Positions 3-45,612 of a DNA stretch of 64,000 nucleotides are shown here, piece after piece. Within the stretch, counting starts at the first letter, position 1. Each line of letters begins with the position of its first letter. The notes below the pieces were generated by a model. That model saw nothing but the letters and a program-made list of their open reading frames with translations, did not search any database and was not told where the DNA came from. Source of the stretch: Candidatus Babeliales bacterium (GTDB taxonomy: Bacteria > Babelota > Babeliae > Babelales > JANWKD01); assembly GCA_963762115.1 (NCBI GenBank), contig CAVXJH010000003.1:96001-160000 (forward strand). The letters are read 5' to 3'. Both the position numbers and the translations under genes were made by a program.

Positions 3-968
3 AATAATGAAGAGAAAATGTTATCAGTATTGTTGAATATTTTAGATAGTCTTGAAACGCATAAAAATATAATTTTTATTGCAACAACAAATGATATTAA
101 AGTATTACCCCCACAAATTAAAGATCGTTTTTCAGGGTCGATATTTAAAATTCCTAATTTTGATTTTAAGCGTCGTGAGCAATTTTATCATTATATAAAA
201 AACAAGAGAGCAAAAAATAATTTTGAGAAGGAAAGAACAGAATTAACAGAAGAATTTAATGAGGAAATAGAATTTGATGTTGTCTTGGATGATAAAGAAA
301 TAAAAGATTTATCAAAAAAATCATCCAATTTTGAGGGACGCGATCTTAATGAAGTGCAAGATGCTGCAAGTATGTTAGCACTAAGAAAATATGTCGATGA
401 AGATTTTAATATTATTCAATTATGTATTCCTGTAACAAAAGAGTGTTTTATTGCAGCAATACAAGAAATTCAAGTAATTAAACGCGAAACAGCTTCGGGT
501 TTTTGGAAGCGTCATAAAGAAACATTTAGAGAATTTTATCCACTTTTTTTATCAACATTTCAAGTTGTTGCTGGGTTAGGGTTGCAATGGTTTTCAATGA
601 ATCAGCAATATAAGCTTGCGCAAACTAATCACAATGATCAATTGGCACTTATGAGTACTTTTCAAGCTTCACAAATGAAATTTTATGAAAGCACTCATGA
701 TCAGCAGGTAGATTTTCAAGATAGAGTTCAAAAAGAACAAGCAGTATTTCAAAATAAGGTACATATAGAGCAAATGGCACAGCAAAAAGTGTTGCAAGAA
801 AAAGCTAATGAGCAACAACTAGCATTCCAAAAACGGGTGCATAAGGATCAACTTGAACTTAGTAGAGAACTAAGTCATCAACAATTAATGATGCAACTTC
901 ATATGTCAACCTGGGGATTGATTTTGCAAGGCACCCTTGGGCTTTGTGGTTTAATACTTCCGAAATAG
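3..968 (+). CDS. AAA+ ATPase (5' truncated by window edge) with C-terminal TM helix and Gln/His-rich coiled coil
   Basis: Frame is open to the window edge. Sensor-1/Arg-finger region IIFIATTN...QIKDRF and lid motif FEGRDL, then a hydrophobic helix and ~11-residue Q..FQ..VH repeats. Paralog of 5302..6543. Confidence 0.8.
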   Translation, partial: NNEEKMLSVLLNILDSLETHKNIIFIATTNDIKVLPPQIKDRFSGSIFKIPNFDFKRREQFYHYIKNKRAKNNFEKERTELTEEFNEEIEFDVVLDDKEIKDLSKKSSNFEGRDLNEVQDAASMLALRKYVDEDFNIIQLCIPVTKECFIAAIQEIQVIKRETASGFWKRHKETFREFYPLFLSTFQVVAGLGLQWFSMNQQYKLAQTNHNDQLALMSTFQASQMKFYESTHDQQVDFQDRVQKEQAVFQNKVHIEQMAQQKVLQEKANEQQLAFQKRVHKDQLELSRELSHQQLMMQLHMSTWGLILQGTLGLCGLILPK

Positions 969-974
969 GTAAAG

Positions 975-1673
975 ATGTACGTGTTTAAAATAATTTTTTT
1001 AGTAATTTCATATCAGGTCATTTTCCATGCAAATGCTATGGAAGATAATCATAATCGGCAAACGATTATTAATGTCAATTCACATTCAGTGTCGAATCAA
1101 TGGCCCATAGATCAATGTAATGAAAGTTCGAGATTTGCAAGAGCTGAATCATTGAAAAATAATGCGCCACATTTATCCCAACGACAATTGCAAATTTTAG
1201 TAGATAGACATTATGCATTGCACATTGAAAATAATCGGATAAATAAAGAAGTTGTCTCTAATCTTTCGACGTTAAGTATACACTTTAATAATGAGCCTTT
1301 GCAGCAACTTTTATCGCTTAGTAAGTTTAGTGAGCCTTCTCTTGGTCAGCAACAGGCCAAAACAATTGATAATCTTATCGGTATTTTATATACCCCTCAA
1401 GGATGCCCAAATTTACAGTTAAATGCTTATGAAAAAGTGCAAGTTGCCAGGATAATAACTAATGAATTGAAAGTGCATAAACCATGCGGATATTTAGCTA
1501 TTATTAAAGATTTAGCTTTAAGAAATGCAGAGTTTCAGGAAATTGTAGCACAAGAAACAAAGCTTTTCCCTTGGGCTAAATATAAAACTACCGAGTGGTG
1601 TGGGCTTGTTAAAGGTCTTTTCTGCGCAATGCACGGTAACATAAATATAGAAGAATTAAAAAAAATATTTTAG
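975..1673 (+). CDS. Signal-peptide protein; probable N-terminal part of a frameshifted polymorphic toxin
   Basis: Signal peptide ending HANA-ME. The ORF stops just after an A8 tract (1658-1665); the -1 frame is open from there into 1703..3424. Confidence 0.6.
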   Translation: MYVFKIIFLVISYQVIFHANAMEDNHNRQTIINVNSHSVSNQWPIDQCNESSRFARAESLKNNAPHLSQRQLQILVDRHYALHIENNRINKEVVSNLSTLSIHFNNEPLQQLLSLSKFSEPSLGQQQAKTIDNLIGILYTPQGCPNLQLNAYEKVQVARIITNELKVHKPCGYLAIIKDLALRNAEFQEIVAQETKLFPWAKYKTTEWCGLVKGLFCAMHGNINIEELKKIF

Positions 1674-1702
1674 CAAATGGCTTTAATCATGATCTGATAA
1701 TA

Positions 1703-3424
1703 ATGAGAGAAGCCTTTTTGAAAGGTGATTTTTTAGAGGCAAAAAACATAACTGATGCATATAACAAACCTACAGAATTGTATGTCGGTCTTTATGCAGC
1801 TCTACGGGGTGTGTATGATGCTCGTATTGAGGAATATGCTAAAGTAGTTGAACCAGATAATTTTGCTTTAACGCAATCATACCTTCAGGGTTTCGTCATT
1901 GAGCGTAGAGTAGTTCCCTTGGCTGCTAATTTGATGAATGAAATAAAAAATAATATCAGTGCAGGGGCGCCAAAAGAGCAGACTCAAAAGTTGCAAGAGC
2001 AATTAGTGCAATTGGATGCTTATGCACGACAAGTGCGCAGTAACTATTCTTTTGATGCTCAAATGAAATTGGCTGATTGTGTATATCAATTGGAAAATGA
2101 GCTTGGCGTTAATTGGCGACCAGAATTGCGCAGATCACCTTCAATGGAAAAACTATTTGTTCCGCAAACAGATTTTCTTGTTACAAGCAAGGAAGTTGGT
2201 ACTATTTCATTGGCAGAATTAAAAAAGTTTTCTGGGACGACGGTTGAACAAAATATTTTGCATGAAAAAATGGTTGATCATTTTGTTAAAATCGATTCTT
2301 TAAGTGGGCAACTCAGTGATAGTAGTGTAGTACAGGCTGTTGAAACCTATAAAACTCTTATTGCTCGTGCGCATGAATTAAATAAAGATAGTCGCGTCAC
2401 TTTAGCAGAAGGTGTGTTTACTATAGGCAAGGATATGGTTGAAATTGCCGTGTTTGATCCCCCTCTAAAGGAAATTGAGGATTGCCTTATTAAAACAGCC
2501 ATGAATCCTGCTGATTATGTTATAAAAACAATTGAAGGTTATAAATGTGTCGCAAGTGTCATTCTTGATGTTTGTAAGAATTCTTTAGCTGGAATCGCAT
2601 CCACACCTGAACAACAAGTTGAATTTGCAGAACATTATAATCAACTAATTCATAATTTTTTTGAAGGTTGGCAAAAACTGGAAATAGCTCAAAAAAAAGA
2701 GTTTTTAGCACAAATTATTGTTGATACAGCACTTAATAAAGTGGTTTTCTCATTACCGAAGCTTATGTTAAAAATGGGTGGTTCGAGTACCATAAGTGAT
2801 ATTGTGCAAAAAGGTGAATCTTTTCTTAATAGAATTGATCCCGGATCTTCTGGTGGTGCAGTTGCTCGTGCTGTTCCAATAGCCGCAGCTGAAAATGTTG
2901 TTGAGGCCCTAGAATTTGCGGCAGGTGTTGTAGGGTCAACGGCAGTTGCTATAACTTCTGCTGGAGCGCAAAATGTTGTTGCTTTATCAGAAATGATGAA
3001 TGGAGGTGATCAAGCAAATAAATATAAATTACCTTCATCATTGGGAAAAATAATAGAAAAAACCCCGCTCGATGCTCCAATTCAAAATGATAAAGATATT
3101 ATTTATACTGTAGAACCCGTAATTCAAAATACTATCAAAAAATTTGACGTAACCCGTAAGATTTACAAACACGCATTTGATCCAGATCATGAAATATCAA
3201 AATTCGGTTTATCAGATTTTGAGGCTTTCAATATTTTTGTCGAAAAAATTTTAAGGGCAGATATTGCTAATTATTTACAAGAACCAGGAAATCAAATAGA
3301 AACATTTATCAATGGGTTTGAAGGGACGGTAAGAATTCATATAAATAAAGGAATTGTAACAAGTTTTAATTGTTTTTTCGGTTATTCAGATAGAGTAATT
3401 GGAAAATTAATAAAGATGGATTAA
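1703..3424 (+). CDS. Putative polymorphic toxin (C-terminal part), with predicted BECR/Ntox35-like RNase tip
   Basis: Helical stalk, Ala/Gly/Val-rich pre-toxin segment, C-terminal KHAFDPDH...TVRIHINKGIVTSFNCF domain; followed by two immunity-like ORFs. Confidence 0.5.
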   Translation: MREAFLKGDFLEAKNITDAYNKPTELYVGLYAALRGVYDARIEEYAKVVEPDNFALTQSYLQGFVIERRVVPLAANLMNEIKNNISAGAPKEQTQKLQEQLVQLDAYARQVRSNYSFDAQMKLADCVYQLENELGVNWRPELRRSPSMEKLFVPQTDFLVTSKEVGTISLAELKKFSGTTVEQNILHEKMVDHFVKIDSLSGQLSDSSVVQAVETYKTLIARAHELNKDSRVTLAEGVFTIGKDMVEIAVFDPPLKEIEDCLIKTAMNPADYVIKTIEGYKCVASVILDVCKNSLAGIASTPEQQVEFAEHYNQLIHNFFEGWQKLEIAQKKEFLAQIIVDTALNKVVFSLPKLMLKMGGSSTISDIVQKGESFLNRIDPGSSGGAVARAVPIAAAENVVEALEFAAGVVGSTAVAITSAGAQNVVALSEMMNGGDQANKYKLPSSLGKIIEKTPLDAPIQNDKDIIYTVEPVIQNTIKKFDVTRKIYKHAFDPDHEISKFGLSDFEAFNIFVEKILRADIANYLQEPGNQIETFINGFEGTVRIHINKGIVTSFNCFFGYSDRVIGKLIKMD

Positions 3425-3429
3425 AAAAA

Positions 3430-4146
3430 ATGAATAAAAATGAATTACATACATTAATTGAAATGTATAGTCATGAAAGGTCCAAAAAAAACACCGAAGC
3501 TTTAGAAGTTTTTTTGGAAGATTGTTTAAAAAATAACCCTTTTGATACTTACTTATGGGTTAAACTAGCTTTAACCGTATATCATCGTCCTTTGTTTGAT
3601 GACTTAAAAGCAATAGCATGCCTTGAAAAAATTCTTGAGTATGATCCCCATAATGTAAAAATAACACTTGTATTAATATACATGGTGAGCAATTGTAAAT
3701 TTTTTGATGATGAGTTATTTGAAAGATTATGCAAACTACAAACTCAAGATAAAGCATTACTCTCATTAATTGAATATACAAAATCATGGTATTATCTGGA
3801 TGAAAAAAATGATGAAATGTATGAGCAATGTTTAATCAATTCAATTAACTTATGCAGTGAATATCTGTGGAGTTATGTTGATTTGGGACAATTTTACCTT
3901 CAAAAAGGTAATTTAATAAAAGGTCATGAATTAATGAAAGAAGGGTTAAAAAAATTAGAATATGTTTTTGAAGAAAAACCTGCAAAAGATATTTTAAACC
4001 TTGAAGAGTTTTTGAATGAACGTTTTAAAGGGATTCATCTAGGTAAATCAAATTATAATATTATTTTGGAATCATTTGATCCAAAATCTCCCTGGATTAC
4101 CTGTGATTTTTTAACAAAGATCAGTAGAGATACAACAGAAAATTAA
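3430..4146 (+). CDS. TPR-like helical protein, putative cognate immunity protein
   Basis: Starts 5 bp after the toxin-like ORF; TPR-like AIACLEKILEYDPHN and YVDLGQFY segments; no signal peptide. Confidence 0.5.
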   Translation: MNKNELHTLIEMYSHERSKKNTEALEVFLEDCLKNNPFDTYLWVKLALTVYHRPLFDDLKAIACLEKILEYDPHNVKITLVLIYMVSNCKFFDDELFERLCKLQTQDKALLSLIEYTKSWYYLDEKNDEMYEQCLINSINLCSEYLWSYVDLGQFYLQKGNLIKGHELMKEGLKKLEYVFEEKPAKDILNLEEFLNERFKGIHLGKSNYNIILESFDPKSPWITCDFLTKISRDTTEN

Positions 4147-4151
4147 TAATA

Positions 4152-4682
4152 ATGATCAAATTAATAGATTTCAAGAAGAATGCTATTTCAATATCCTGGA
4201 AAACTATATTAGTTGGAAGAACATTAAAATTAGTGGATACCTCTTTTATTGAGGATTTTGCAACTCAATATTTACTAGATCATTATAAATTAGAGAATAA
4301 AGATATTATTGAATTGGCTTATGGTGTAAACGACACTTTTGAAATTGATGAAATGGTCAAAAAAATATTGAGCGAATTAAACCAAAATATAGATGAAAAT
4401 TCAGAAGAATGGAATATCGAAACAAGAAAATGGCGTTTTTTAGTATTACAAGAATTACTAAGTAAAGGTTATGATAATAGAAAAATTTTAGATGAAATTG
4501 AAAGCATATATTGTGATTTTGATCACCCTGAAGAAATGAATGCTTTTTTGATTTATATGCCTCATGTTTATGATGATGGATATAATATTAAAGATCATTC
4601 AGCTGAAGAAAATATAGCGCACATAGTGAAGCGGTTTAAAGATTTTCTTTTGAATGAACATAAAGAGCTATTAAAAAAATAG
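4152..4682 (+). CDS. DUF2247-like protein, putative immunity protein
   Basis: SWKTILVG...RKWRFLVL...IESIYCDFDHPEEMNAFLIYMP matches the DUF2247 pattern. Confidence 0.65.
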   Translation: MIKLIDFKKNAISISWKTILVGRTLKLVDTSFIEDFATQYLLDHYKLENKDIIELAYGVNDTFEIDEMVKKILSELNQNIDENSEEWNIETRKWRFLVLQELLSKGYDNRKILDEIESIYCDFDHPEEMNAFLIYMPHVYDDGYNIKDHSAEENIAHIVKRFKDFLLNEHKELLKK

Positions 4683-4711
4683 TTAAAAAAAATTATTAAG
4701 CGAAACAAAAT

Positions 4712-5290
4712 ATGAAAAAAATTTTTATACTAATCCTTTTTTTAATGGTAACTCAATCAAATTATGCTTTTATATTAGATGGATTATTAAAAATCGAAGA
4801 TTCAGTTGATGCAATAAAAATTGCTGCAGTTGATCTAGAACACTATGCAGATCAGATAACAACTTTTCGAAGAACCATATATACCGGCAGAAGCTTTGTT
4901 ACTATTGATGATTATTGGTGTGAATCCTTAGCTGCAAAAAGAAGTATTAATGAATATAACAACCAAGAACAGGCTCTTCAACTAAAAATTCTATTGAGTC
5001 TTTTATTTGATACCTTTGTTTTGGCAAATATTGCTGGATATTGTCATGCAAAATTTAATATGAAAATGCCTACGGTGATTTGTGGTATTATGGCAGCTGC
5101 TTTGGGTATAGTTGCTCATCAAAACAATAAAATGAAGAATGTGCCTTATTTTGATTTTTATTTAAAGCGGCATGAAGATAGATTCGATAATTTTAATTTT
5201 TTTAGTGCATTTAGATTTGCTTTTATTACTATAGAAGCAGGACTTATGGCATATTTGACACGAGCTTTTTATGAAATTCCATTCAACTAA
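4712..5290 (+). CDS. Hypothetical membrane protein with signal peptide
   Basis: MKK plus hydrophobic N-terminus; about three further hydrophobic helices. Confidence 0.6.
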   Translation: MKKIFILILFLMVTQSNYAFILDGLLKIEDSVDAIKIAAVDLEHYADQITTFRRTIYTGRSFVTIDDYWCESLAAKRSINEYNNQEQALQLKILLSLLFDTFVLANIAGYCHAKFNMKMPTVICGIMAAALGIVAHQNNKMKNVPYFDFYLKRHEDRFDNFNFFSAFRFAFITIEAGLMAYLTRAFYEIPFN

Positions 5291-5301
5291 TAGGATATGC
5301 A

Positions 5302-6543
5302 ATGCAACGGAATTATTTAATACGATTTTTTTTAATTGTTATTGTTTTTATTAATAATAAGACAATACTAGGTCAAGTAAATTCTAAAAACGATAATAAA
5401 AATAGTTCTTATCAAGAGTCTTCTTCTGAAGCACCTAAAAATACTTCTGATGAAATTGATCGTTTGTTAGGAGCAAGAGAGGAAGAGTTTAGGAAAAAGA
5501 ATACAGAAATATGCCTTTCAAAAAAAGATATCATTCTTGATTCAGATCTTGTTATAGAATTGTTTTTGCAATGTCCGGAAAGATTGCGTTATATCATTGA
5601 AACATTAGTTATGAGAAATCGATTTGATAATGATTTATATCAAGGATTCATTCCACAACATATCGTTCTTGTTGGCCCTCCGGGCGTCGGGAAAAGTACT
5701 ATTGCGCATGCTATTGCCCAAGCTGCGGGAATTCCATATACCTTTATCAGAGCTATGACACTTGCTAATGAATACATAAATTCAGGGCCGAGCAATTTGC
5801 TCAGAATTTTTGATCCAATATTGGCAATGGATGAACCATATATTGTTATTATCGATGAATTGCAGACACTCATTAAAAAAAGAAATAACAATGAATTTGA
5901 TATGGCGGCTGCCGAAGTATTATGGATGTTGCTTGATGAATGCAAAGCAAAAAATAATATTTTAATTATTGCAACAGCAAATCATATTTCTGATTTGCCT
6001 GAACAGTTAAAAAGTCGTTTTGCAAAAAGTGTATATGAAATTAAATTGCCAGGTTTGATAGCACGTGAAAAAATTATTAGTCACTATATAACAAAAAGCA
6101 AGGTTAGTTGTTATGATATTTCTTCAATTATTAAAAATTTGGCACGAAAAACAGTTGGTTTCTCTCCTCGTAATTTAGAGGATTGCATAACGATTGCCCT
6201 TTCAAGAGCTTTTTTTACGGCAAGAAATGAAGGTTGTCTTGCTATGACTCTTACTAAAGATGATTTAGATGTAGGATTTGCTCATATTAAAAATCAAAAA
6301 AATAATTCTTATTTTGTGCCGCAATGGTGTAAAGATTTTGTTAAATATGTTGGTCCGGCAACAGTTATTTCACTTGGTCTTAATGTTGCACAAATGGCTT
6401 TATATTTTTTTTTACAATACTGCGATCGTAAAGTTCATCTTGCCATGACACAAGCTCATCATGATGATTTTGTACATATTAATACAATGCATAATCAGGC
6501 CATATTACAGCAAAATGAACGATTTCATCGTGCAAAGATATAG
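5302..6543 (+). CDS. AAA+ ATPase with N-terminal signal/anchor, C-terminal TM helix and His/Gln-rich tail
   Basis: Walker A GPPGVGKS, Walker B IVIIDE, sensor-1 IIATAN, Arg finger LKSRF, lid GFSPRNL. Confidence 0.9.
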   Translation: MQRNYLIRFFLIVIVFINNKTILGQVNSKNDNKNSSYQESSSEAPKNTSDEIDRLLGAREEEFRKKNTEICLSKKDIILDSDLVIELFLQCPERLRYIIETLVMRNRFDNDLYQGFIPQHIVLVGPPGVGKSTIAHAIAQAAGIPYTFIRAMTLANEYINSGPSNLLRIFDPILAMDEPYIVIIDELQTLIKKRNNNEFDMAAAEVLWMLLDECKAKNNILIIATANHISDLPEQLKSRFAKSVYEIKLPGLIAREKIISHYITKSKVSCYDISSIIKNLARKTVGFSPRNLEDCITIALSRAFFTARNEGCLAMTLTKDDLDVGFAHIKNQKNNSYFVPQWCKDFVKYVGPATVISLGLNVAQMALYFFLQYCDRKVHLAMTQAHHDDFVHINTMHNQAILQQNERFHRAKI

Positions 6544-6564
6544 CTAAAGCTCATACATTATAAT

Positions 6565-6602
6565 AAACAAAAAGAGAAGCAATCGTGCTTCTCTTTTTGT
6601 TT
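6565..6602. terminator. Bidirectional rho-independent terminator
   Basis: AAACAAAAAGAGAAGCA-atcg-TGCTTCTCTTTTTGTTT between convergent genes. Confidence 0.85.
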
Positions 6603-29843: not shown

Positions 29844-31379
29844 CTAGAAATTTTTTCTTGGGGCGTCGCCAAGTGGTAAGGCACCGGGTTTTGGTCCCGG
29901 CATTCGGAGGTTCGAATCCTTCCGCCCCAGCCATCGTTTATTATCAATCGAATTTATAATGACATCAAACGGTCTTTGTGCGTCGTAGAGCACTTTTTCA
30001 TTTTCAATACGCAAGTTCGATAGTACTAAATTAATTAACTGACGTTTTTCATTCACTTCTGAACTCACAAACCATTCATATGCACGATTGCTAATATCCA
30101 GCACATATTTTGCGGTAGTATAATAATTGTCTTCTGCTTCTCGTAATTGAAGTAAGCGCATGTTAAGATTTTCGCTTTGCTCGCTAAGAGATTGATAGAA
30201 CTTATCATACTGCTCATCAGAAATTTTACCTTTGAGTTTATCAAGGTATAAGTTATCCATCATTTTTGTTGTTATTTTTTGTTCATTGGTGAGCTTGTCA
30301 AATTGTTGGTTATGAAATTTAATTTTATCTTTATGTAATTCATTAAGATTGTCAGTTATTTTTTGTACGGTAGCTTCTGGTAGTTGAAGGCTTTTGAATA
30401 CTTGCCCAAGTTGTTCTGTTATTTCTTCTTCTCGCAACCACTTAGCACCATGCTTTCCTTTATATTGCGTGCAATGATAGTAGGTGAATCCCTTATGTTT
30501 TTCGGGGGTAATTGAACAGCCGCAATGTCCGCAACGCAAAAGACCTCTATACATATAAGGTAGACCAGCATATTTGAAAGGTTTTTTATTGAAGCCATCT
30601 TTTACTTGCTTAACTTCTTCAAAAAGTGTTTTTGAAATAAGAGGCGGATACCGATGTGGATATAATTTTCCCTTTATCAACATTTCACCATGATAAAAAG
30701 AATTGCCAAGGACTTTGGCAAAATAACTCTTGGACCATTGAATGTTAAAGTCAGCTTTCAGTTTTTGGGACAGAGTTTCTATTGAGTATGCCTTTGTTGC
30801 ATAGAGCTCAAAGATTTTTTTAATGATTGCTGAGGTATAATCATCAACTATGATATCTGTGGTGCCATCCTCCTTGGTGATATTCAAATAGCCATACGGT
30901 GCTTTTGAAAGCCATTCCCCTTTGCGTAGTTTTTGCTCTTGAGCGCGTTTTACATTATCGCTGATTGCATCAGAATAATATTTTGCAAGACCAAGGCTGA
31001 TACTAAATTGAAATTTTTCTACGGCAGAAATGCGACTGTTTAGCACTTGACCATCTGATACAAAATGTAGCTCTAGTTTATCCTGAAGTGCTTTTTCATA
31101 AAGTATGGCGACTTTTTTGTCAAAAATATTGCGAGATAAGCGATCGACTTTATCACAGCAGACGGCGATTTTCTCTTTTTGTGCAAGTACAAAATCAATG
31201 ATACCATTAAACTCATCTCGAGGTCCTTCATGCGCACTTTCATCAAAGCTAAATACTTGAAGAATTGGAAAGCCTTTATTTTGGCAATATTTTTCAAGAC
31301 GGGCTATCTGTGCAGGAAGTGAGTTGCCTGCTTCCCTTTGTTCTTCTGTGCTAACACGTGCAATGAGAATTGACTTCAT
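29844..31379 (-). CDS. Large serine recombinase (integrase); 3' end overlaps the tRNA antisense
   Basis: Catalytic ARVSTEEQ, DKVDRLSRN, KAPYGY recombinase domain, Zn ribbon CGHCG...YYHC, coiled coil; last 29 codons are antisense tRNA and flank. Confidence 0.95.
   Translation of the reverse strand: MKSILIARVSTEEQREAGNSLPAQIARLEKYCQNKGFPILQVFSFDESAHEGPRDEFNGIIDFVLAQKEKIAVCCDKVDRLSRNIFDKKVAILYEKALQDKLELHFVSDGQVLNSRISAVEKFQFSISLGLAKYYSDAISDNVKRAQEQKLRKGEWLSKAPYGYLNITKEDGTTDIIVDDYTSAIIKKIFELYATKAYSIETLSQKLKADFNIQWSKSYFAKVLGNSFYHGEMLIKGKLYPHRYPPLISKTLFEEVKQVKDGFNKKPFKYAGLPYMYRGLLRCGHCGCSITPEKHKGFTYYHCTQYKGKHGAKWLREEEITEQLGQVFKSLQLPEATVQKITDNLNELHKDKIKFHNQQFDKLTNEQKITTKMMDNLYLDKLKGKISDEQYDKFYQSLSEQSENLNMRLLQLREAEDNYYTTAKYVLDISNRAYEWFVSSEVNEKRQLINLVLSNLRIENEKVLYDAQRPFDVIINSIDNKRWLGRKDSNLRMPGPKPGALPLGDAPRKNF
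29859..29933 (+). tRNA. tRNA-Gln (anticodon TTG)
   Basis: Acceptor stem TGGGGCG/CGCCCCA, anticodon arm CCGGG-TT-TTG-GT-CCCGG, T-loop GGTTCGAATCC, encoded CCA. Confidence 0.97.
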
Positions 31380-31388
31380 ATTTTATGA

Positions 31389-31577
31389 TTATTCGTTGGT
31401 AGAATGACCTAATTCTTTTTCATACAGCAAGCGGATGCCTTCACAAAGAATGGTTGATCTGTCGGTCTTATTACGATTACGAAGGCGCTTAATAAATATC
31501 TCATTTAAGAGGCTTTCGTCTTTCTCTGACATATAGATTGTAGTTTTTGCTTTTTTTTGAATAGCTGATTCTTGCAT
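31389..31577 (-). CDS. Small ribbon-helix-helix-like DNA-binding protein
   Basis: KTTIYMSE beta strand plus two helices (RSTILCEGIRLL); AGGA RBS; 9 bp upstream of the integrase. Confidence 0.6.
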   Translation of the reverse strand: MQESAIQKKAKTTIYMSEKDESLLNEIFIKRLRNRNKTDRSTILCEGIRLLYEKELGHSTNE

Positions 31578-31628
31578 AGATTTTTCCTAAAGAACTGAAC
31601 AATTTATAACCTTAATATTATAGGTGTC

Positions 31629-31697
31629 ATTCTAGCTATGTTCCAAAAGAAGTCAAGAAGTTAAAATGTTTGAGCGCCTGAGCGTCTTGACTTCTTT
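31629..31697. promoter_or_regulatory. Divergent promoter/operator with 13-bp inverted repeat
   Basis: AAAGAAGTCAAGA (31646-31658) and TCTTGACTTCTTT (31685-31697); minus strand TTGACT-16 bp-TAGAAT. Confidence 0.55.
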
Positions 31698-31839
31698 CTG
31701 TAAGGTTTTATTATTATAATAAACATGGTTATTTTTTTATAATAATAATTTCTATAAGAAAAATACTTATTGATGATGTTGGATTAATATAATAACAAGC
31801 TCTTTTGAAAATAGTTTATACAAAGCGTAAGGTATCTAT

Positions 31840-32634
31840 ATGAAGAATGAAACTTTAAGTTTTATAGTGATAGTAGTATTATTATTTCTGTTGATGGGGC
31901 CTCGTGGAGAATCAAAAAATTATTGCAGATCTCATGATAGTTTTACCTTTCATTGTCATCATAATGACACCAATACAGATATTTATTTGAGAAGACTGAA
32001 TGCGAAATTTGATAAAGTGCTTGAACTGGTTGATACATCTTCAGAAGGAGTGAAAGATAAAAGATCGATAGAAGAAGCAGCTGTTGAGGCAAAAATTATA
32101 GTTTCAAGTATGTTAACGCAACTTAACCTTTTTAGAGCAGGGAATTTACGGACTGGTTTTTTGGCGAGCATTATTCCTAATTTTTTACGTAATGATGATG
32201 AAATACTATTTGATCATCAAACAGATGCCGCGGTTTCTACTCTTACTGAACTCAAAAATTATACTAAGGAAGAGGCGGGTGTTTTCAGAAAAACTTTGTT
32301 AGAAAGAACTTCCAGCCTAGAATTGATACATCTATGGGGATTAAGTAAAATAAGGTTAAGTTTGTCAGCTATAATTGAAGAATGCATAGCTAAGGCAATA
32401 ATTAAGGGAAATGATTATAATATACCAAGAAGTCTTCAAGAAATTGTTATGCTACGATATGATGAGCTGGATAAAGACGCATCAAGAATACAGGATATTC
32501 TGAAAGCTATTGATAGTGGTGAAATACGTTGGCTTTATGATCTAGAAGTACTTATAAAAAAATTATATGTTGATCAAGATGAATTAACATCATGGTTGAA
32601 ACAATTGGTTATGAAAAGGCCTTATTTATTGTAA
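31840..32634 (+). CDS. Hypothetical cargo protein with N-terminal signal/anchor
   Basis: 264 aa, hydrophobic N-terminus, helical body. Confidence 0.65.
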   Translation: MKNETLSFIVIVVLLFLLMGPRGESKNYCRSHDSFTFHCHHNDTNTDIYLRRLNAKFDKVLELVDTSSEGVKDKRSIEEAAVEAKIIVSSMLTQLNLFRAGNLRTGFLASIIPNFLRNDDEILFDHQTDAAVSTLTELKNYTKEEAGVFRKTLLERTSSLELIHLWGLSKIRLSLSAIIEECIAKAIIKGNDYNIPRSLQEIVMLRYDELDKDASRIQDILKAIDSGEIRWLYDLEVLIKKLYVDQDELTSWLKQLVMKRPYLL

Positions 32635-32650
32635 TAACTTATCAAGGTTC

Positions 32651-33841
32651 TTAATGCTTAATAAATCTTATTTTGGTAGTTAAATTATTAAAATACTTGC
32701 AAGCCTTGCAATTAAGGTTTGCCATAGGAACAATATCACTCTGTAATGATTCCAATGCATCATAAATTGTTGCCTGGACCCAGGAATCATCAATTTTATG
32801 CGCAAATAAATATGGTTCAAATTCAAGCTTCCAATCAAATGAATTTTTATCGGTAATTGCATTGCAAAAAAGTAAATAACCCGTTGAGCAAACAGTATAA
32901 TTATTTTTTTTGAATATCCAAGCATAAAATTCTATTTGCTTCTTGTATTCGTGAAGATATGGAATATTGCTAAAATTCGGATAAATTATAGATTTAACGA
33001 TAGTCTTATAATCAACTATAACCAGTTCTTTTTTATCATTTATCCATACATCATCAACCCCACCATTCACAAACCAATTCTCCCAAACATGATGGAATTG
33101 AATTCCATATTTTCTTTTTTCTTCCCATGACCAAGCGGTTTGCCATTTTTTTAATTTTTTATGACGTAATGGTTTAAAACCTTCGGGCATAATTGGATGC
33201 GCTTCTCCTCTAGTTCGATATTGGTCGAATTCTTTCTTCAAAAGACTATCAACCGCTCTTGATAAAGCAAAAACCTCTCCATCAGCAATTGGTTGCTTAA
33301 TGCCAAGCTTTTTATCAATATAGAAACATCGCTTACAGTATAAGAATGTCTTAATATCAGTCCAACTAAATTCTCTGCGTACTGGCAATTCAGAATTTGT
33401 TTTTTCCTCAATAGGAGGTATATTGCGAGGGTTTATTTTAGGGGCAAATAATTCAGCTTCAATAGCATTATTACAAGAGGCAATTCCAAGCAACCCTTCA
33501 TATAAAATTCTACTCATTAGAAATATTTCTGGAGAATTTTCTTCTAAAGAATTTCTATATTTTTCTTTTGGTAAAATTATTTGAGATTTTATATATTGGC
33601 CAGATGGATTATGTAAAAGAGTTAAAGTTATTTTGATAGATTCGTTTTTTAATTTATCAATCGCATGTTCTATAGAAAGACCATGCTTGATTAAAATATT
33701 ACGGTTTTTTTCGAGCAATGATTTATAATCAGCTTCTGGGTCAATATTTGTTAAAATAATACCATCAATTCCGCCTTTAGCTGCTTCAATCAGAGCTCGA
33801 ATTAATTTTTTTCGTTCGGAGGATTTATATAAGATAGACAT
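32651..33841 (-). CDS. PD-(D/E)XK RecB-family nuclease with N-terminal extension
   Basis: FSWTDI...CKRCFY, GGVDDV...IVDYKT, QIEFY, CKACKY. Confidence 0.85.
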   Translation of the reverse strand: MSILYKSSERKKLIRALIEAAKGGIDGIILTNIDPEADYKSLLEKNRNILIKHGLSIEHAIDKLKNESIKITLTLLHNPSGQYIKSQIILPKEKYRNSLEENSPEIFLMSRILYEGLLGIASCNNAIEAELFAPKINPRNIPPIEEKTNSELPVRREFSWTDIKTFLYCKRCFYIDKKLGIKQPIADGEVFALSRAVDSLLKKEFDQYRTRGEAHPIMPEGFKPLRHKKLKKWQTAWSWEEKRKYGIQFHHVWENWFVNGGVDDVWINDKKELVIVDYKTIVKSIIYPNFSNIPYLHEYKKQIEFYAWIFKKNNYTVCSTGYLLFCNAITDKNSFDWKLEFEPYLFAHKIDDSWVQATIYDALESLQSDIVPMANLNCKACKYFNNLTTKIRFIKH

Positions 33842-33881
33842 AGTATATTACTTTTGCTGCAGGATAAGAATAATATAGATC

Positions 33882-34112
33882 TTAAATATTTTCATTTATC
33901 ATTCCTACATAAGTAGTCTTCATCATACATCTAAGCATCATCAAGCCCATTTTCATAACCATTTTTTTTTCTTGATTAGTTGCACAACACCAGGCCCGCT
34001 CATCTTCCCATGCAGCCTCATAACCCTTATCATATGTGCTATATTTGCTGCATTCAGCAAAAAATAATAAACCAAAGAGAGTAATACAAAGACCAAAAAA
34101 TTGAATATTCAT
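33882..34112 (-). pseudogene. Probable degraded small exported protein
   Basis: Signal-like N-terminus and YDKGYE. After an A-run, the shifted frame gives the related NGYENGLDDA*MYDEDY with an internal stop. Confidence 0.4.
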
Positions 34113-34311
34113 ATAAAACTTTCAATGTTTACTATATATTAATGTAGCCATATAGAATAATCTGTCAAAAAAACCTTTATATGTGCATATTTATTATTTT
34201 ACAAATTAATTTATACATGAAAATTTATATATCGTGTAGCTAATTGATAGTTATAAAATCAAATACAGAATATATTAATTTTGCTTATGTATTTCGATAA
34301 AGGAGAAAATT

Positions 34312-34917
34312 ATGGCTCATTGGGGATGGTACTGGAAGGTAAAGCAAAAACACATTCCAAGAATTATTTGCACAAAATTACCCACCATTGACTCATTTAA
34401 GTTAGCGCAGCATATTAAGGCTATGGTTGGATTTAGCGTGCAGCCTTTAGGGGTTAAAGCTATATTCCAAGGCAATATTCTGAAGATTACCTATAGAAAG
34501 CATAAAGATTATTCCTATATCATCCCTATAGATAAGCAGCCCTGCAATTATGGCGGATTCCGTTATTTTTTTAAATGTCCTTTATGCCAAAGACGCATGC
34601 GAATACTTTATTTTGCACAGCAAAGCATTTTTCTTTGTCGTAAGTGCTTAAACCTAAGCTATGAAACTCAATGCCTAAGACCAACTAAGCGCTATGAATA
34701 CATGAGTCAAAAAGTTAAAGATAGTATGAAAGACAAACAAGGCAATCTAGAACTTTCCAAAAAACCTCCTCGAATGCATAAAGGGAAATATCAAAAACTC
34801 AAAGACAAGCAGTTTGATTATGAATGCAAATCTCACGAAGCTCTATGCCAAGAATTACGACTTTGGCATGGAGTAAAAATCGAACCTTTTTTGGATGACT
34901 TTTTTGATTACAGATGA
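34312..34917 (+). CDS. Basic Zn-finger hypothetical protein typical of integrative elements
   Basis: CNYGGFRYFFKCPLC...FLCRKCLNLSY...KPPRMH; RBS AAGGAG. Confidence 0.75.
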   Translation: MAHWGWYWKVKQKHIPRIICTKLPTIDSFKLAQHIKAMVGFSVQPLGVKAIFQGNILKITYRKHKDYSYIIPIDKQPCNYGGFRYFFKCPLCQRRMRILYFAQQSIFLCRKCLNLSYETQCLRPTKRYEYMSQKVKDSMKDKQGNLELSKKPPRMHKGKYQKLKDKQFDYECKSHEALCQELRLWHGVKIEPFLDDFFDYR

Positions 34918-34940
34918 AAATAATGGGATATTATCTTCAT

Positions 34941-35192
34941 AAGTTGAAATAGTTGAAGTAGATTGAAAAAAAGTCAACTTATCAATATTGGCAATAGATC
35001 GTCATTTCAAGCAAGAATAATCTTGTAGATTTAAAAGTTGAAACCAATCAATTTCCATTGTTGTAATGTTAATAGAAGAGGATTTGTTTCAACTTTTAAA
35101 CTTAATCGTTAATAATATTCATAACCATCGTCTACATCGAAATGTTCCTATGTTGAAATTATTGTTCAATTTTCATCAACTTTTTCAATTGA
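34941..35192. repeat. Cluster of (G/A)TTGAA repeats in both orientations, putative replication origin
   Basis: AAGTTGAAA at 34941 and 35035, AGTTGAA at 34951, TCAACTT at 34974, TTTCAACTT at 35087, GTTGAAA at 35152 and others, at the 3' end of the primase gene. Confidence 0.5.
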
Positions 35193-37574
35193 TTGCTCTA
35201 GCAATTGATATAACCAATCGTTTTTTTGGCCAATTTGATTACATGAAATTTTTCCCTGTTGGATAAGTGTTTCAAGAATGTAATCATACTCTTGGCATCC
35301 GCCATCCAGTTGATGTGAATTGAGAAGGGATTGCCTTCTAACAGAGGATTTTGTTTTTACAATTTTCTTGCAAATCCATTCAAGTATTTTACGGCACTTG
35401 CGCTGATGTTCAGATTCCCCGAGTTCTCCTTCAATTAAATTAGCGGTTGATTTTATAGCCGGCATAAGAATGGCAAAGGCAGAATAAAGGGCTTCAACTC
35501 CTATTTCTTTAGATTTCGTGTCTATAAAAAGTTGCATAATCATAGCCAATTTTAAAAGGCAAGGACTCCAGCGTTTAAGGTGTGGTTCAAGTATTTCTTG
35601 GCATTTATCGCTATAGGAAGGCATTATTTTGTAAATATCCTGATGAAAGCCCTCAAAAATCACTTCTGCTTGATGTGAAAAAGTATAGCTATAGAAGTTG
35701 TCCATATTTTGTAATATTTCCTTGACCTTTTGTTCTGCTTGTTGATTTGATTTTGTTTTTTTAGTTGGCAAAGCAGGTGGTATTTCATATTCATGCGGTG
35801 GAGCGAAAATAAGAAATCTTGCAAAAAAACCACTAGCAAAATCTTCAGGTTTAATGTGTGCCTTTAACCATGCAAGTGTAGAAACAGCGCATATAGAAAT
35901 ATATGGCTCATTTAAAATAAAGTCGCCTCGTGTTACTGTTTTGTAGCGATAACTACGAGGAACATCATACAGCTCTGTAAGTAGTGCTTTAAGATCGCCA
36001 TTGTAGCTTTTTTCCAGATTTAAAAGCCAACCACCAAATTCGCTTGGTAAAATAATACCGGAATGTCCTTGTCCAAGATGCTCAAGTAAAGCTTCCGTAG
36101 TAACTTTAGTTGGCAAAACAACATCTTTGATAGATATTTCAATGATTTGTGCTTTGAGTTCCTTTATTTTTTTGGTATCAGTTTCGAGTTGCAGTTCTTT
36201 GCGTAAATCTTTAGTAAGTTCTCCGACATCCTTTGAAATTTCTAATGCAAGTTTGGTGCCTTTAGTTAATGCGGTGCTTTTGAATTGTCCACTACCGGTA
36301 ACATTTATCATCCAAATATTTGGATAAAGAGTTTGAAAATACTGATCATCTGAAATGAACACACGTTTTCCAATATAAGCTGATATCATGCCCATAACAG
36401 CACTTGTTACCATGATCGGATGTGCATTCGTTGTTGCGCAGATAGAGTTTACATAGTTACCTAAGATTGGCGGGAGAAGGGTTGTAGAGAATGTTGCGCA
36501 TGGATCATTTACTTTAAGAGGTTTTTTTGAAACAATTTTGAGATCATCAGTTTTAATAGCTTCTGAAGAGCAATGTATCGCACTTGCAGAACAGAGTTGC
36601 ATTCTAACTTCTTCTAATCCGCATAGTTGATGAAGGTCGTTGAAATCAGTATAGGGCTTATCATGGGGATCTAATCTTTTGTCTGTTGGAAATACCGGAA
36701 AAATAGTTTTGCATTGAAAAACATCAGCAGCCGCATTAGCCTTTTTTATGCCGGTTTCATCATTATCTCCGGCAATTATAATTATACTTTTTGGAAATGC
36801 TTTTTTTAGGTTTTCAATTACTGGAAGTAGATTGTAAGCATCATAAGCAATGACGACTGTTCCAACATTTGTTGAATAAATACTGACACCGGTTGCCCAG
36901 CCCTCAGTAACATACAGAGTATTACCATCGAGAAGTTCTCCAAGATTATAAAAATTTCCCCTTTTTTCTCCGTCTTGAAGAAAACGCTTAATTATTTTGC
37001 CTCGTTCATCAACATAAATAGATTGTAGTGAGCGGATCTCACCTTTTATATTTTTTAAGGGAAGCAATATTCTTGGGAATTTATTAAAAATAGTAAACTT
37101 TGCACCTATTGCTTCAATTCCTTTAGATTTTGGATATCTAAGGAAATCTTGAGAAGATGGTTCGTTTAAAGCTTCATTCCATACTTTTGTAGCAAGTATT
37201 GCGGCATTATTTTGTGCATCTTTTATTTGTTGTTCCGCTTCTTTTTTCTTTTTTTCGAACTCTGATTGCAGATGTTGTCGTTCCATATCTGATATGTTGC
37301 ATTTGTCATAAGATTTGAAAATATATTGGTTTCCTGTGCTCCATGAGCCATATATGACCGTTAAATATAGACGATCTTGCAAAGAGGTTCCTTCATAGGC
37401 AATATACCATTCATCACGTTTGTTTCTTTGTGTATCTGTTGAATATCGGTGAATTCTACCATCTGTAATGATTTGATCTTCGCATGGCAAACCATTTTCT
37501 GTCATGTGATTGTGGAGTTCTTCTACTAAATCATGTTGATTTTTGATATAATTATTCATAAGAAATTCTTTCAT
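35166..37574 (-). CDS. TOPRIM primase fused to DUF3987-like P-loop helicase (element replicase)
   Basis: YVTEGWATG, IIIAGDND, TDFNDL; TGSGQFKST Walker-A-like motif; SEFGGWL, LTELYD, GFFARFL. Confidence 0.85.
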   Translation of the reverse strand: MKEFLMNNYIKNQHDLVEELHNHMTENGLPCEDQIITDGRIHRYSTDTQRNKRDEWYIAYEGTSLQDRLYLTVIYGSWSTGNQYIFKSYDKCNISDMERQHLQSEFEKKKKEAEQQIKDAQNNAAILATKVWNEALNEPSSQDFLRYPKSKGIEAIGAKFTIFNKFPRILLPLKNIKGEIRSLQSIYVDERGKIIKRFLQDGEKRGNFYNLGELLDGNTLYVTEGWATGVSIYSTNVGTVVIAYDAYNLLPVIENLKKAFPKSIIIIAGDNDETGIKKANAAADVFQCKTIFPVFPTDKRLDPHDKPYTDFNDLHQLCGLEEVRMQLCSASAIHCSSEAIKTDDLKIVSKKPLKVNDPCATFSTTLLPPILGNYVNSICATTNAHPIMVTSAVMGMISAYIGKRVFISDDQYFQTLYPNIWMINVTGSGQFKSTALTKGTKLALEISKDVGELTKDLRKELQLETDTKKIKELKAQIIEISIKDVVLPTKVTTEALLEHLGQGHSGIILPSEFGGWLLNLEKSYNGDLKALLTELYDVPRSYRYKTVTRGDFILNEPYISICAVSTLAWLKAHIKPEDFASGFFARFLIFAPPHEYEIPPALPTKKTKSNQQAEQKVKEILQNMDNFYSYTFSHQAEVIFEGFHQDIYKIMPSYSDKCQEILEPHLKRWSPCLLKLAMIMQLFIDTKSKEIGVEALYSAFAILMPAIKSTANLIEGELGESEHQRKCRKILEWICKKIVKTKSSVRRQSLLNSHQLDGGCQEYDYILETLIQQGKISCNQIGQKNDWLYQLLEQSIEKVDEN

Positions 37575-39806: not shown

Positions 39807-39860
39807 TGAATATATAAATATTGGTTCTTATCGTTGTTTTTTCAAATAGGGGAAATTATT

Positions 39861-41753
39861 ATGTTTTTTAAGAAAGCCTTAAAGTTGGTATTATGTACTC
39901 TGACACTTTTTACCACAATAACCATGCATCCTATGGGCCCTAATGAGCTCATAGATTTTCTCACTAAAAATGGTGATACTGTCAGTCTTAAGCGTAAAAT
40001 TGCTGAGCAATCAGGGACAATTTCACATTTATTGGGTGATGTTGATGATCAAGCGCAAGAAGCAATTCCCTTGCCCATTTCAACTGCAATGTTTAAAAGT
40101 ATAAAACCTTTGTTGAAAAAAAACTTTAAAAGTTCTCGATTGCCACAACCGGACACTCAATTATCTCAACAAAATTTACAACAACAATATACTCAGTTAT
40201 CTCAAAAAATTTTACAACAACAATCTGACAACACGTTATTAAAACTTATTCAAACAACTAACTATTTAGATTGCCCTCCTATTTTAGAAAAGTGTGCAGA
40301 TGTTCTTGCAGAAAGAACTTTTAAAAAAAATAGTAATCTTTATATTGTTAGCGCATTTGTATGGACCCAAAAAATGTTACAAAAATTACCCAATGAGCTT
40401 TTGGTCTTAATTCAACAAGCATATCTTAAAAAATCTTGTGATCTTTTTGAGCATGTTCATAATCCTATGCAAACAGAAATTAAGCCAATAACATTAACTG
40501 ATAATAACGGTCAAATTCGATCAGTTCATTATGATATTGATGGAAAAAACATTATTACTCAGATAGATGATGATACCATTTGTCATTGGGACCCTGAGAC
40601 ACAACAAAAAACAACGTTAATTAATAAAACACATTGGCCGTCTCTTGCCTCGAGAAATGAAAATAGAATACACAGCAATAAAATATATTTTGAGACAAGT
40701 GCTTATTCTCCAGATGGTTCAACCTATGCAATTGGTGGAAGCGATACAGTTTGTATTTGGGATCTTAATAAAAAAGAATTACTTAACCATAAAAAGCTTC
40801 CACGTCAATTTAGGACAATGTGTATGTCATATCATCCAGCTCTAACAAGACTTGCTGTTGGCAGTGGCCCTAGAGGAGAAGTTGTTATTTTTGATATAGA
40901 AACTATGGATGTTATTCATACTTTGAAAACTAATGGTATTTGGGTTAAAAATATAAAATATGCGCCGGATGGAAGAACTCTTGCAACAAGTAATATTGGA
41001 AGAAGTAATTCGGTAAAAATATGGGATCAAGAACTAGAAAATTGCCTAAAAACTATTGATGTTGGTGATGATAGTGATGATACTTTCGGACCTCCAGTTA
41101 TATGTTATTCACCTAATAATCAATTTTTGGCCTGCGCAGCAAGTAATAAAATTACTATTTACGAAACAACTAATAATTATGCATGTATTAAAGATATTAA
41201 AAGAGGTGAAAAACCTTTAAATAATGATAAGCAAATTAACTTAATTCAATATACATCAGACGGAAAATATTTGATTGCTGGATTGCAAGATGGAACAATT
41301 GAGTTTCGGGAAACAAATAATTATACTTGCATAAAAACACTTTCATACGATCGACCAATCTGGTCTGTTGCTTTTAATAAGAATGGATCACATATGGCTA
41401 GCATTTCACCAGGAAAAGAATATCCTGAAAGCCGTCTTGTATTGTGGGATATTTCTAGTTTATTTCTTGAAAATATTTTTAAAGAATTAAATTTTGAAGA
41501 ATTATTATTGATAACTAAAGTTGCACTGGCAAAAAAGAACAGTACTAAACTTGAAGTTTGCCCTCTTCATACTAATGAACTTGATGCAACAACAGGAATA
41601 AAAATTTCAGATATTTATGCGAATATACCAAGTCAACTTAAAGAAAAATTAGAACCATATATTAGATTGAATAGATCATGCAAATGTACTTTTTTGCCTA
41701 TTAAAGTTCCTGGGACCCCAAAAACTACGGAAAGAAATAATTATGATTTTTAA
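39861..41753 (+). CDS. Exported Skp1/BTB-like + F-box-like + WD40 protein, copy 1
   Basis: Start MFFKKALK after GGGGA; Skp1-like IAEQSGTISHLL..IPLP..LIQTTNYLD; KLPNELL; WD40 repeats (YSPDGS, VCIWD, VKIWD, LVLWD). Confidence 0.85.
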   Translation: MFFKKALKLVLCTLTLFTTITMHPMGPNELIDFLTKNGDTVSLKRKIAEQSGTISHLLGDVDDQAQEAIPLPISTAMFKSIKPLLKKNFKSSRLPQPDTQLSQQNLQQQYTQLSQKILQQQSDNTLLKLIQTTNYLDCPPILEKCADVLAERTFKKNSNLYIVSAFVWTQKMLQKLPNELLVLIQQAYLKKSCDLFEHVHNPMQTEIKPITLTDNNGQIRSVHYDIDGKNIITQIDDDTICHWDPETQQKTTLINKTHWPSLASRNENRIHSNKIYFETSAYSPDGSTYAIGGSDTVCIWDLNKKELLNHKKLPRQFRTMCMSYHPALTRLAVGSGPRGEVVIFDIETMDVIHTLKTNGIWVKNIKYAPDGRTLATSNIGRSNSVKIWDQELENCLKTIDVGDDSDDTFGPPVICYSPNNQFLACAASNKITIYETTNNYACIKDIKRGEKPLNNDKQINLIQYTSDGKYLIAGLQDGTIEFRETNNYTCIKTLSYDRPIWSVAFNKNGSHMASISPGKEYPESRLVLWDISSLFLENIFKELNFEELLLITKVALAKKNSTKLEVCPLHTNELDATTGIKISDIYANIPSQLKEKLEPYIRLNRSCKCTFLPIKVPGTPKTTERNNYDF

Positions 41754-43617: not shown

Positions 43618-43618
43618 T

Positions 43619-45598: not shown

Positions 45599-45612
45599 CA
45601 GAGGACAGAAAT

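Follow-up and report, generated by a model that had tools for sequence, protein, structure and literature searches.

The window analysed here, a 64,000-nucleotide stretch of a Candidatus Babeliales bacterium genome (G000:C3:96001-160000, G000 being the 1.53 Mb, 95% complete source genome), begins with a gene cassette that is a genuine polymorphic toxin-immunity system. It belongs to a family that spans the Babelota and is apparently undescribed; the carrier is new, and an AAA ATPase of secreted type is an optional partner. Babelota (Dependentiae, TM6) are described as strictly intracellular bacteria of protists (PMC12172432). We consider it probable that this toxin-immunity family, likely exported by Sec and a type II secretion system (T2SS) and ending in the window in a predicted BECR RNase tip, likely kills rival Babelota that are not immune.

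The cassette consists of open reading frames (ORFs) 3-968, 975-1673, 1703-3424, 3430-4146, 4152-4682, 4712-5290 and 5302-6543, all on the + strand and separated by 6, 29, 5, 5, 29 and 11 bp, just as they were placed by an earlier note made from the letters of this DNA. The first and last encode AAA ATPases (AAA1 and AAA2), the second and third are by comparison with homologs one toxin gene, and the others encode a TPR-like protein, an Imm38 protein and a membrane protein. The earlier note saw in this run the layout of a polymorphic toxin with its immunity genes, and the layout holds up: tips are swapped on conserved bodies, a likely cognate immunity gene follows the tip, and orphan modules are present.

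Swapped tips on a conserved carrier

A genome of the same genus (G003) carries an ortholog of the toxin at the same locus, with the same flanking AAA genes; its body is identical to that of the window toxin at 316 of 658 positions (48%), whereas the tips align over only 29 residues. The G003 tip is identical at 71 of 109 positions to the tip of a second cassette in G000 (on contig C6), yet those two bodies share only 127 of 366 residues. A protein in G002 is the opposite case, with 231/637 identities to the window toxin in the body and 73/126 (58%) in the tip, and tandem copies in G231 have bodies identical at 339 of 346 positions and unrelated tips. Similarly, a contig from sequencing run X6 tracks the stalk over 2648-3008 and then diverges into unlike sequence at the tip junction. 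The variable C-termini expected by the earlier note are thus found, the 16 close homologs with complete C-termini falling into 6 tip clusters. The GC content drops from 37% in the stalk to 26–28% in the tip, the TPR gene and the Imm38 gene (28% in the tip). At loci L120 (G231) and L108 (G120), three or four carriers that are nearly identical (up to 98% in the body) stand in tandem with differing tips, Colicin D and Ntox35 among them.

The phylum set searched comprises 261 Babelota species genomes from 21 families. The marker that recurs across them is an all-helical carrier core (2186..2743, + strand) with the consensus G-x-x-x-Q-x-x-L-H-x-E ... H-P, represented by a profile made from a 12-row alignment of the core shared by distant carriers that had been found as neighbours of the AAA subfamily. 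This profile matches 122 of the 261 genomes in 16 of the 21 families, at about 290 places and up to 11 per genome, and none of 301 control genomes of one unrelated phylum (that of G261). The profile was required, as a single-protein search with the stalk reached only its own family (4/261 genomes); a metagenome scan with the stalk alignment yielded 398 candidates and no confirmed match. AAA-adjacent toxins at L069, L070, L078, L076, L080 and L085 lack this core, and three of them share only a middle module recognised by a second profile; more carrier types therefore exist, and 122/261 is a lower bound.

For closer comparison 59 loci were taken, 57 of them the best listed match of a genome not yet sampled and two hand-picked second loci. 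Tips, taken as the final 200 residues of the 64 carriers with at least 400 amino acids (aa), fall into 23 clusters, and 26 of these tips have Pfam matches at E<=5e-4 (17 EndoU, 4 Ntox17, 2 Ntox21, and one each of Ntox35, Colicin_D and DUF4258), several under the curated cut-off; all 26 are nuclease-toxin-type families and nothing else. A same-strand gene of at most 300 aa lies within 35 bp downstream of 58 of 61 carriers, compared with 56 of 363 large G000 genes. Among 105 downstream genes, Pfam recognises three CdiI_ImmP, one CdiI_N, one DUF6980, two orphan EndoU pieces and six unrelated families, with no match for the rest. By a crude hydropathy test, signal-like N-termini are present in 47 of 62 carriers and in 2 of 60 first downstream genes.

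The earlier note had recognised no carrier domain, and none emerges from Pfam, NCBIfam, PDB sequence or fold searches: the carrier has no Pfam match and no NCBIfam match near the cut-off, and Foldseek with the carrier model returned nothing at E<=0.001. The model is all-helical with a predicted local distance difference test score (pLDDT) of 72, falling below 50 in the last 87 residues, and its neighbours are short generic helical bundles only (Z up to 10 over 72–80 residues). Such generic-bundle matches to a model do not amount to a new carrier fold. The best matches of the carrier profile to PDB sequences, Mediator Med12 and designed coiled coils, were taken as low-complexity matches. Between core and tip lies an Ala/Gly/Val-rich hydrophobic segment (2897..2953, + strand; Kyte-Doolittle hydropathy [KD] 1.67) that is a candidate membrane-crossing element.

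The toxin reading frame, the tip and the putative immunity genes

The toxin gene (975..3424, + strand) is divided in the assembly, and comparison with homologs indicates that its two ORFs, 975-1673 and 1703-3424, together form a single gene of 816 aa with a signal peptide. The first ORF (232 aa) has a signal-like N-terminus and aligns to the N-terminal end of a paralog that is intact in G000 (1096 aa; E 3e-8), the second aligns to the C-terminal half of that paralog (E 5e-41), and the G003 ortholog is a single ORF of 793 aa. In Logan, the proteins P0009 (816 aa) and P0004 (662 aa) correspond letter for letter to both ORFs across the junction with the frame uninterrupted. In P0009 numbering the pre-tip segment is residues 642-660. 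The signal peptide is predicted for residues 1-21 (975..1037, + strand; KD 1.71 over residues 1-19), homologs having the same N-terminal pattern; the long helical protein with a signal peptide described by the earlier note is therefore present, but the signal lies in 975-1673 and the 573-aa ORF 1703-3424 to which it had been assigned has none.

The break coincides with a run of eight A residues (A8; 1658..1665, + strand) and is probably an assembly error, because two proteins from other assemblies read through it; P0009 and P0004 are perhaps from the same sample, so that they show a difference between assemblies and no independent population. As a background for frame breaks we used 186 orthologs of intact G003 ORFs, drawn from 400 kb of G003; four are flagged as two-frame, one of these is a tandem paralog, and two of the remaining three have a 6–7-base homopolymer at the junction. 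Against these three real splits in 186, both the window toxin and the Imm38 gene of the second cassette (at a run of ten A residues, A10) are out of frame, as would be expected if the window copy were a recently inactivated or phase-variable toxin gene retained for its immunity genes. We nonetheless rate that explanation as very unlikely, for both Logan proteins, whose sequences are identical to the window ORFs, pass the junction in frame, homopolymers accompany background splits too, and the slippery site is not conserved, there being no long A run in the same-genus ortholog. Programmed frameshifting was ruled out on the same ground.

The tip (3011..3424, + strand) is predicted from alignments and a structural model to be an Ntox35-like BECR RNase. 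The KHAFDPDH motif pointed out in the earlier note is present, with His codons at 3170-3172 (H733) and 3188-3190 (H739), and the corresponding H-x5-H (H42 and H48 of the tip) is invariant in 10 of 10 tip homologs. Ntox35 (PF15534) is matched at E<=0.05 by eight of these ten, with homologs scoring 27.0 and 27.8 bits against a cut-off of 23.6 bits, and the G002 tip, 58% identical to that of the window, scores 20.1 bits. A BECR RNase fold has an N-terminal helix that packs on a beta-meander; the tip model (pLDDT 91.9) has helices over residues 37-73 and strands at 81-88, 91-100, 103-111 and 120-123. Its top five VIA neighbours are all CdiA-CT toxins (Z 4.5–6.0, root-mean-square deviation 3.0–4.5, 88–98 residues aligned), followed by RelE-type toxins. 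The nuclease fold for which the earlier note's proposal called is thus predicted, though from neighbours with low Z. PDB sequence searches with the tip profile and with the tip of the second G000 cassette (tip B) gave no credible match. For Ntox35, Zhang et al. 2012 (PMC3482391) predict a BECR RNase that has two histidines in its N-terminal part, and they list no immunity protein; in the Staphylococcus aureus Ntox35 the histidines are H199 and H205, with the H205A substitution abolishing killing (10.1101/2025.07.24.666436). The spacing of the window pair equals that of H199/H205.

The TPR-like gene that follows (3430..4146, + strand; no signal peptide) is likely the cognate immunity gene of this tip, since a member of its family follows the tip in nearly all loci and a predicted complex covers both histidines. 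Its TPR matches are present as the earlier note had it, but they are weak and below the cut-off. The tip profile matches 22 of 261 genomes, and the TPR family is the next gene in 28 of 30 tip loci taken (five of which hold sequences used to build the profiles, and two overlap); at one of the exceptions, L211, a TPR gene follows a tip ORF missed by the gene caller. The predicted tip-TPR complex scores 0.69, against 0.00 for the best control and a mark reached by 116 of 157 solved pairs and by only 2 of the 215 mismatched ones; at least 94% of contacts are common to the runs, and the partner pLDDT is at least 82. The modelled interface involves tip residues 41-42 and 45-49, which include both histidines, and the sheet face with R787, H789, S797 and N799 (P0009 numbering). 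The prediction supports binding of the two proteins without demonstrating it.

The next gene (4152..4682, + strand), called DUF2247-like in the earlier note, scores 106 bits with Pfam DUF2247 (PF10004; cut-off 25), which is Imm38 (PMC3482391). In 19 distinct loci, which remain from 24 after removal of three weak cross-matches and two duplicates, Imm38 lies directly after tip B in nine, two of which served to build the tip-B profile, and after the window tip in none; the window Imm38 is therefore an orphan, and as cognate immunity of the window tip it was ruled out. Of the two immunity genes that the earlier note saw stacked behind the toxin, the first is thus likely cognate, but the second serves another tip. 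Further orphan modules are EndoU pieces at L070, L105 and L131 and tip-TPR arrays at L216 and L219.

Several other loci have comparable arrangements. At L070:6682-11264 a candidate immunity gene comes after an EndoU toxin, and behind it lie an orphan EndoU module and two more small genes of similar sequence, and at L016:4083-5067 two similar small genes, one with a CdiI_N match, lie a few kb from the G002 toxin and are probable orphan immunity genes. L212 (G003:C1:1012600-1021000) has an AAA gene, a 935-aa toxin with the window tip type on a more distant carrier, and an array with three TPR-family immunity genes. The two ends of contig G001:C1 (L148 and L015) have, respectively, an inverted partial copy of the tip with two TPR genes and a toxin without its 5′ end, an inverted repeat that probably broke the assembly.

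AAA ATPases and the rest of the locus

The two AAA genes reported at the ends of the cassette both match PF00004 above the cut-off. ORF 3-968 (+ strand), identified from Pfam, alignment and hydropathy as a Babelota-type AAA+ ATPase with a Gln/His-rich C-terminal tail, is an AAA gene as claimed but merely the 3′ part of one of at least 535 aa, whose signal-like N-terminus lies before the window at about G000:C3:95289-95361 (+ strand). This N-terminus is in frame and begins with ATT where a paralog has Met, so that either the start codon is unusual or a base is wrong. AAA2 (5302..6543, + strand) has a signal-like N-terminus, intact Walker A and B motifs, a pore-loop Tyr, a sensor-1 Asn and one Arg finger. 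The description of both as membrane-anchored fits AAA2 in that residues 353-371, towards its C-terminus, are moderately hydrophobic (KD 1.62), but not AAA1, which has no segment of KD >=1.5 except the signal-like N-terminus. The closest genome match of AAA2, at 65% identity, is in a record titled 'Candidatus Babeliales bacterium' (L017).

The subfamily belongs to the classic AAA+ clade, with sensor 1 and one Arg finger kept in its alignment. Across it, Walker A and B and the pore-loop aromatic are retained in most members by motif scan, 21 of 23 have signal-like N-termini by hydropathy, and the best NCBIfam matches (FtsH, IteA, PAN and CDC48) are all far under the cut-off. At E<=1e-45 the subfamily turned up in 31 of 261 genomes, which is a minimum because only six candidates per genome were scored. 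In the window family, AAA copies sit at toxin loci in G000 (5/5), G003 (3/3 high-scoring) and G002 (1/1); a fourth, weaker G003 copy directly precedes another toxin (that of L212), and no copy was found in G001, whose toxin begins at a contig edge. Among 20 AAA-picked loci of other families, a large protein (693–1464 aa) lies directly downstream in 11, in one of them after an intervening 133-aa ORF; in the remainder, four have a carrier nearby, one is cut by a contig end and four have none.

Viewed from the carriers, the association is looser. From 66 carrier ORFs, not counting the two hand-picked loci, 54 were at least 400 aa long and had a visible upstream gene; an AAA gene lies directly upstream of 13 of these (two at E of only about 1e-8) and within five ORFs of 20, and 34 have none within five. 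The figure of 13/54 is likely an overestimate, because the core profile was built mostly from AAA-adjacent carriers. No AAA gene was found at four tip-picked loci outside the window family or at three further carrier loci within it. AAA-led carriers are longer (median 992 versus 647 aa; Mann-Whitney p 1.4e-5, with kin not independent) and are dispersed over the carrier tree (five changes on a quick, weakly resolved tree). Co-divergence of AAA and carrier is weak (24 pairs, Mantel rho 0.15, with 335 of 5000 permutations as high), and the orthologous second toxins of G000 and G003 (G000B and G003B; 63% core identity) follow AAAs just 28% identical.

The AAA adjacency proposed in the earlier note is therefore conserved in the window family and recurrent in others, but far from universal. 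An AAA directly upstream of only 13 of 54 carriers makes it an optional accessory, and as an obligatory partner it was ruled out by that count, the AAA-less loci and the weak co-divergence. From these sequence comparisons, signal-peptide AAAs are recurrent, ordered and optional toxin partners, and likely a co-secreted accessory of a subclass of long-bodied carriers. The suggested role in delivery or unfolding gains from the recurrent adjacency and loses from the mostly AAA-less carriers; most plausibly the AAAs would act as unfoldases or chaperones and not as a required delivery motor. That they are dedicated motors, co-secreted with the toxin and using host ATP to unfold and thread long-bodied carriers into the target, can be entertained only tentatively. 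It would account for the presence of every high-scoring AAA of the window family at a toxin locus, the large proteins or carriers beside 15 of the 20 AAA-picked loci elsewhere, the signal-like N-termini and retained motifs, and the greater length and dispersal of AAA-led carriers. It fits poorly with adjacency in so few carriers of an AAA-biased profile, the tip-picked and family loci that lack an AAA, and the low AAA identity and Mantel correlation.

The second cassette of G000 (L003; G000:C6:553878-569025) contains a 536-aa AAA, the 1096-aa toxin with tip B, the out-of-frame Imm38, small membrane genes and, on the opposite strand, an 894-aa ankyrin-AAA fusion. A fifth G000 AAA lies there beyond two genes that by eye resemble periplasmic PPIase chaperones. 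Downstream of the second cassette of G003 (L014:14631-19941) is a tandem array of five paralogous secreted proteins, mostly with ankyrin-like repeats by eye.

The membrane protein of the window cassette (4712..5290, + strand) has a signal peptide and two hydrophobic segments and appears to be lineage-specific. It is non-core, because two of its three paralogs in G000 are remote from toxin loci and it is missing at the same-genus locus; on these grounds it was ruled out as a core part. The terminator reported to close the run corresponds to a hairpin at 6563..6602 (18 pairs, -23.5 kcal/mol, z -8.2, equalled by none of 200 shuffles) with A/T-rich ends, located between AAA2 and a convergent flavodoxin-fold gene and likely a bidirectional terminator; a consensus scanner did not list it. 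Run X2 yielded a 5258-base contig with pieces of 2093 to 6497 in window order. No RNA run was among the matches listed in the sequencing-run search, in which all shares were below 0.2, and a plasmid search gave no match. Elsewhere in the window, unnamed genes separate a serine recombinase (Resolvase) from a DUF3987 protein at 29847-37574, a probable integrated element beside mraW, and 39834-47830 encodes a tandem pair of WD40 proteins together with a YhcG nuclease and an ankyrin protein, a typical Babelota effector island.

Export, target and known systems

G000 has two secretin matches (PF00263) over the cut-off, and a T2SS is reported in TM6 genomes (PMC4776705) and as the sole secretion system of Babela (PMC4378268). 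Signatures of other export routes were not seen in this 95% complete genome: VgrG OB-fold (PF04717) and WXG100 (PF06013) were not found (PAAR and tail genes were not searched for), the toxin ORFs have no Pfam match, and ShlB of the CdiB type reaches merely 18.2 bits, below the cut-off, though control genomes gave no ShlB match either. With its signal peptide the toxin would pass through Sec and then leave by the type II system. The helical core and hydrophobic pre-tip segment would bring it into the target, where the two-histidine BECR tip would cut RNA, and in the producer the TPR protein would plug the H733/H739 active site. The target would be a rival Babelota without matching immunity, met during co-infection of one protist cell, and the orphan Imm38 would guard against tip-B toxins of relatives and of the second G000 cassette, whose own Imm38 is out of frame in the assembly. 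Cytoplasmic immunity together with orphan immunity genes argues for a bacterial, kin target, and given the obligate intracellular lifestyle such kin would most simply be co-infecting strains. Export, entry, RNase activity and target are all inferred here. The fuller version, a phylum-wide interbacterial weapon with a new helical carrier in which secreted AAA+ proteins running on host ATP thread long-bodied toxins into co-infecting rivals, is unlikely in its entirety.

A distinctly less likely alternative is that the toxins are nucleases directed at the host, whether at the cytoplasm, the mitochondrion or the nucleus of the protist. The small genes would then only shield the producing cell against toxin that is mis-sorted, and the AAAs would be independent host effectors in the same islands. 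Secretion toward the host is well represented in the phylum, 44% of C. destructans coding sequences having signal peptides in an infection that degrades the host nucleus (PMC6561590), and Babela having secreted AAA-Ulp1 fusions with a T2SS only (PMC4378268). The orphan immunity genes and tip modules (the window Imm38 and the arrays at L070, L212 and L216) nevertheless indicate attack by kin, missing immunity genes are the hallmark of host-directed toxins according to Zhang et al. (PMC3482391), and 23 tip clusters are compatible with an arms race among kin. We attach hardly any weight to the idea that the cassettes are addiction modules binding the protist to its bacterium, a role proposed for three polymorphic toxin loci with orphan modules in Ca. 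Bodocaedibacter, the Bodo saltans endosymbiont (PMC8163844), since 58 of 60 immunity genes lack a signal peptide and could not protect the host, and since cultured Babela and Chromulinavorax are reported to lyse their hosts.

A number of observations count against the interbacterial reading that we prefer. The window tip itself has no Pfam match, so its Ntox35 membership is by transitivity; its fold neighbours have Z below 8, perhaps just a common arrangement according to VIA, and Foldseek with the tip model found nothing at E<=0.001. In the wider family, 38 of 64 tips have no Pfam match at E<=5e-4, only 5 of 105 downstream genes match CdiI_ImmP, CdiI_N or DUF6980, most being unnamed in Pfam, and the TPR gene is missing from one tip locus (L185). 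Signal peptides were called by hydropathy alone, in a crude test also passed by 508 of 915 G000 ORFs of at least 200 aa, and no contig from the sequencing runs spans the A8 junction. In this model a protein released by a T2SS would, in addition, have to cross the envelope of a rival.

The literature on Dependentiae, Babelota and TM6 toxins, on polymorphic toxins of protist symbionts and on Ntox35 does not describe the family, in a search that left subscription journals mostly uncovered and with supplements (PMC4378268, PMC3482391) that could list members. 'Toxin' is absent from the main texts of PMC4776705, PMC6561590 and PMC12172432 and appears twice in that of PMC4378268, for classical toxin-antitoxin pairs, and a 2025 survey describes its Babelota as devoid of toxin-antitoxin systems (PMC12644861). 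Secreted proteins of these reduced, obligately intracellular bacteria have so far been read as host effectors. A toxin family with immunity arrays in about half of 261 genomes, some with at least ten copies, implies routine strain competition inside one host cell. It gives a new marker for the carrier, candidate immunity proteins for RNases of the Ntox35-like kind and a second tip partner for Imm38, and its unnamed sampled tips form a pool for new nucleases; the AAA link, if functional, would be a new way to power toxin delivery.

Among known systems, the Sec/T2SS polymorphic toxins with leaders such as MafB-N, MicroscillaN, APD1 and APD2 (Zhang et al. 2012, PMC3482391) likewise combine a signal peptide, a lineage-specific body, a variable C-terminal nuclease, adjacent immunity and orphan immunity or tip modules, and have in common with the Babelota family Ntox35, Ntox17, Ntox21, EndoU, Colicin D and Imm38. 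The Babelota toxins differ in a body without a significant Pfam or NCBIfam model or specific solved fold, in having no recognised Rhs, FHA, HINT or protease, in the signal-peptide AAA at many loci and in belonging to obligate intracellular parasites. Imm38 is paired with Ntox19 or an NGO1392-like HNH in the table of Zhang et al. (PMC3482391), and with the unnamed tip B in Babelota. In the S8 polymorphic toxin systems (S8-PTS), the S. aureus S8-Ntox35 (10.1101/2025.07.24.666436) is also Sec-exported and has an Ntox35 tip whose two histidines are separated by six positions. Its immunity protein is cytosolic and predicted to block the active site, and the gene of a co-secreted enzyme precedes the toxin gene, so that helper, toxin and immunity come in that order; its helper, however, is an S8 peptidase and not an AAA, its carrier a short BetaH, and its hosts Gram-positive and free-living.

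The best structural neighbours of the predicted tip are CdiA-CT BECR tRNases (PDB 7vmc, 6vek, 6cp8, 7m5f and 6cp9; identity 8–11%), although the G000 toxin, unlike those of contact-dependent growth inhibition, has no FHA carrier and the genome no CdiB over the cut-off. Loci of the Photorhabdus virulence cassette/extracellular contractile injection systems (PVC/eCIS) and of type VI secretion systems (T6SS) resemble the Babelota cassettes in having an AAA+ gene beside polymorphic toxins (the CDC48-like PVC-AAA and ClpV). Those ATPases are cytoplasmic, whereas the Babelota AAAs have signal-like N-termini, and G000 has no detected VgrG OB-fold. In the same phylum, the AAA-Ulp1 proteins of Babela massiliensis (PMC4378268) also have AAA domains with signal peptides but are fused to a permuted C48 peptidase, with no toxin-immunity context in the portion of text consulted. 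Ca. Bodocaedibacter vickermanii (PMC8163844) is of another lineage and has a T6SS; its single genome holds three loci, and 'AAA' does not appear in the main text of the paper. Its toxin loci combine polymorphic toxins and orphan modules in a bacterium that lives inside a protist, and are the nearest precedent for the cassettes described here.

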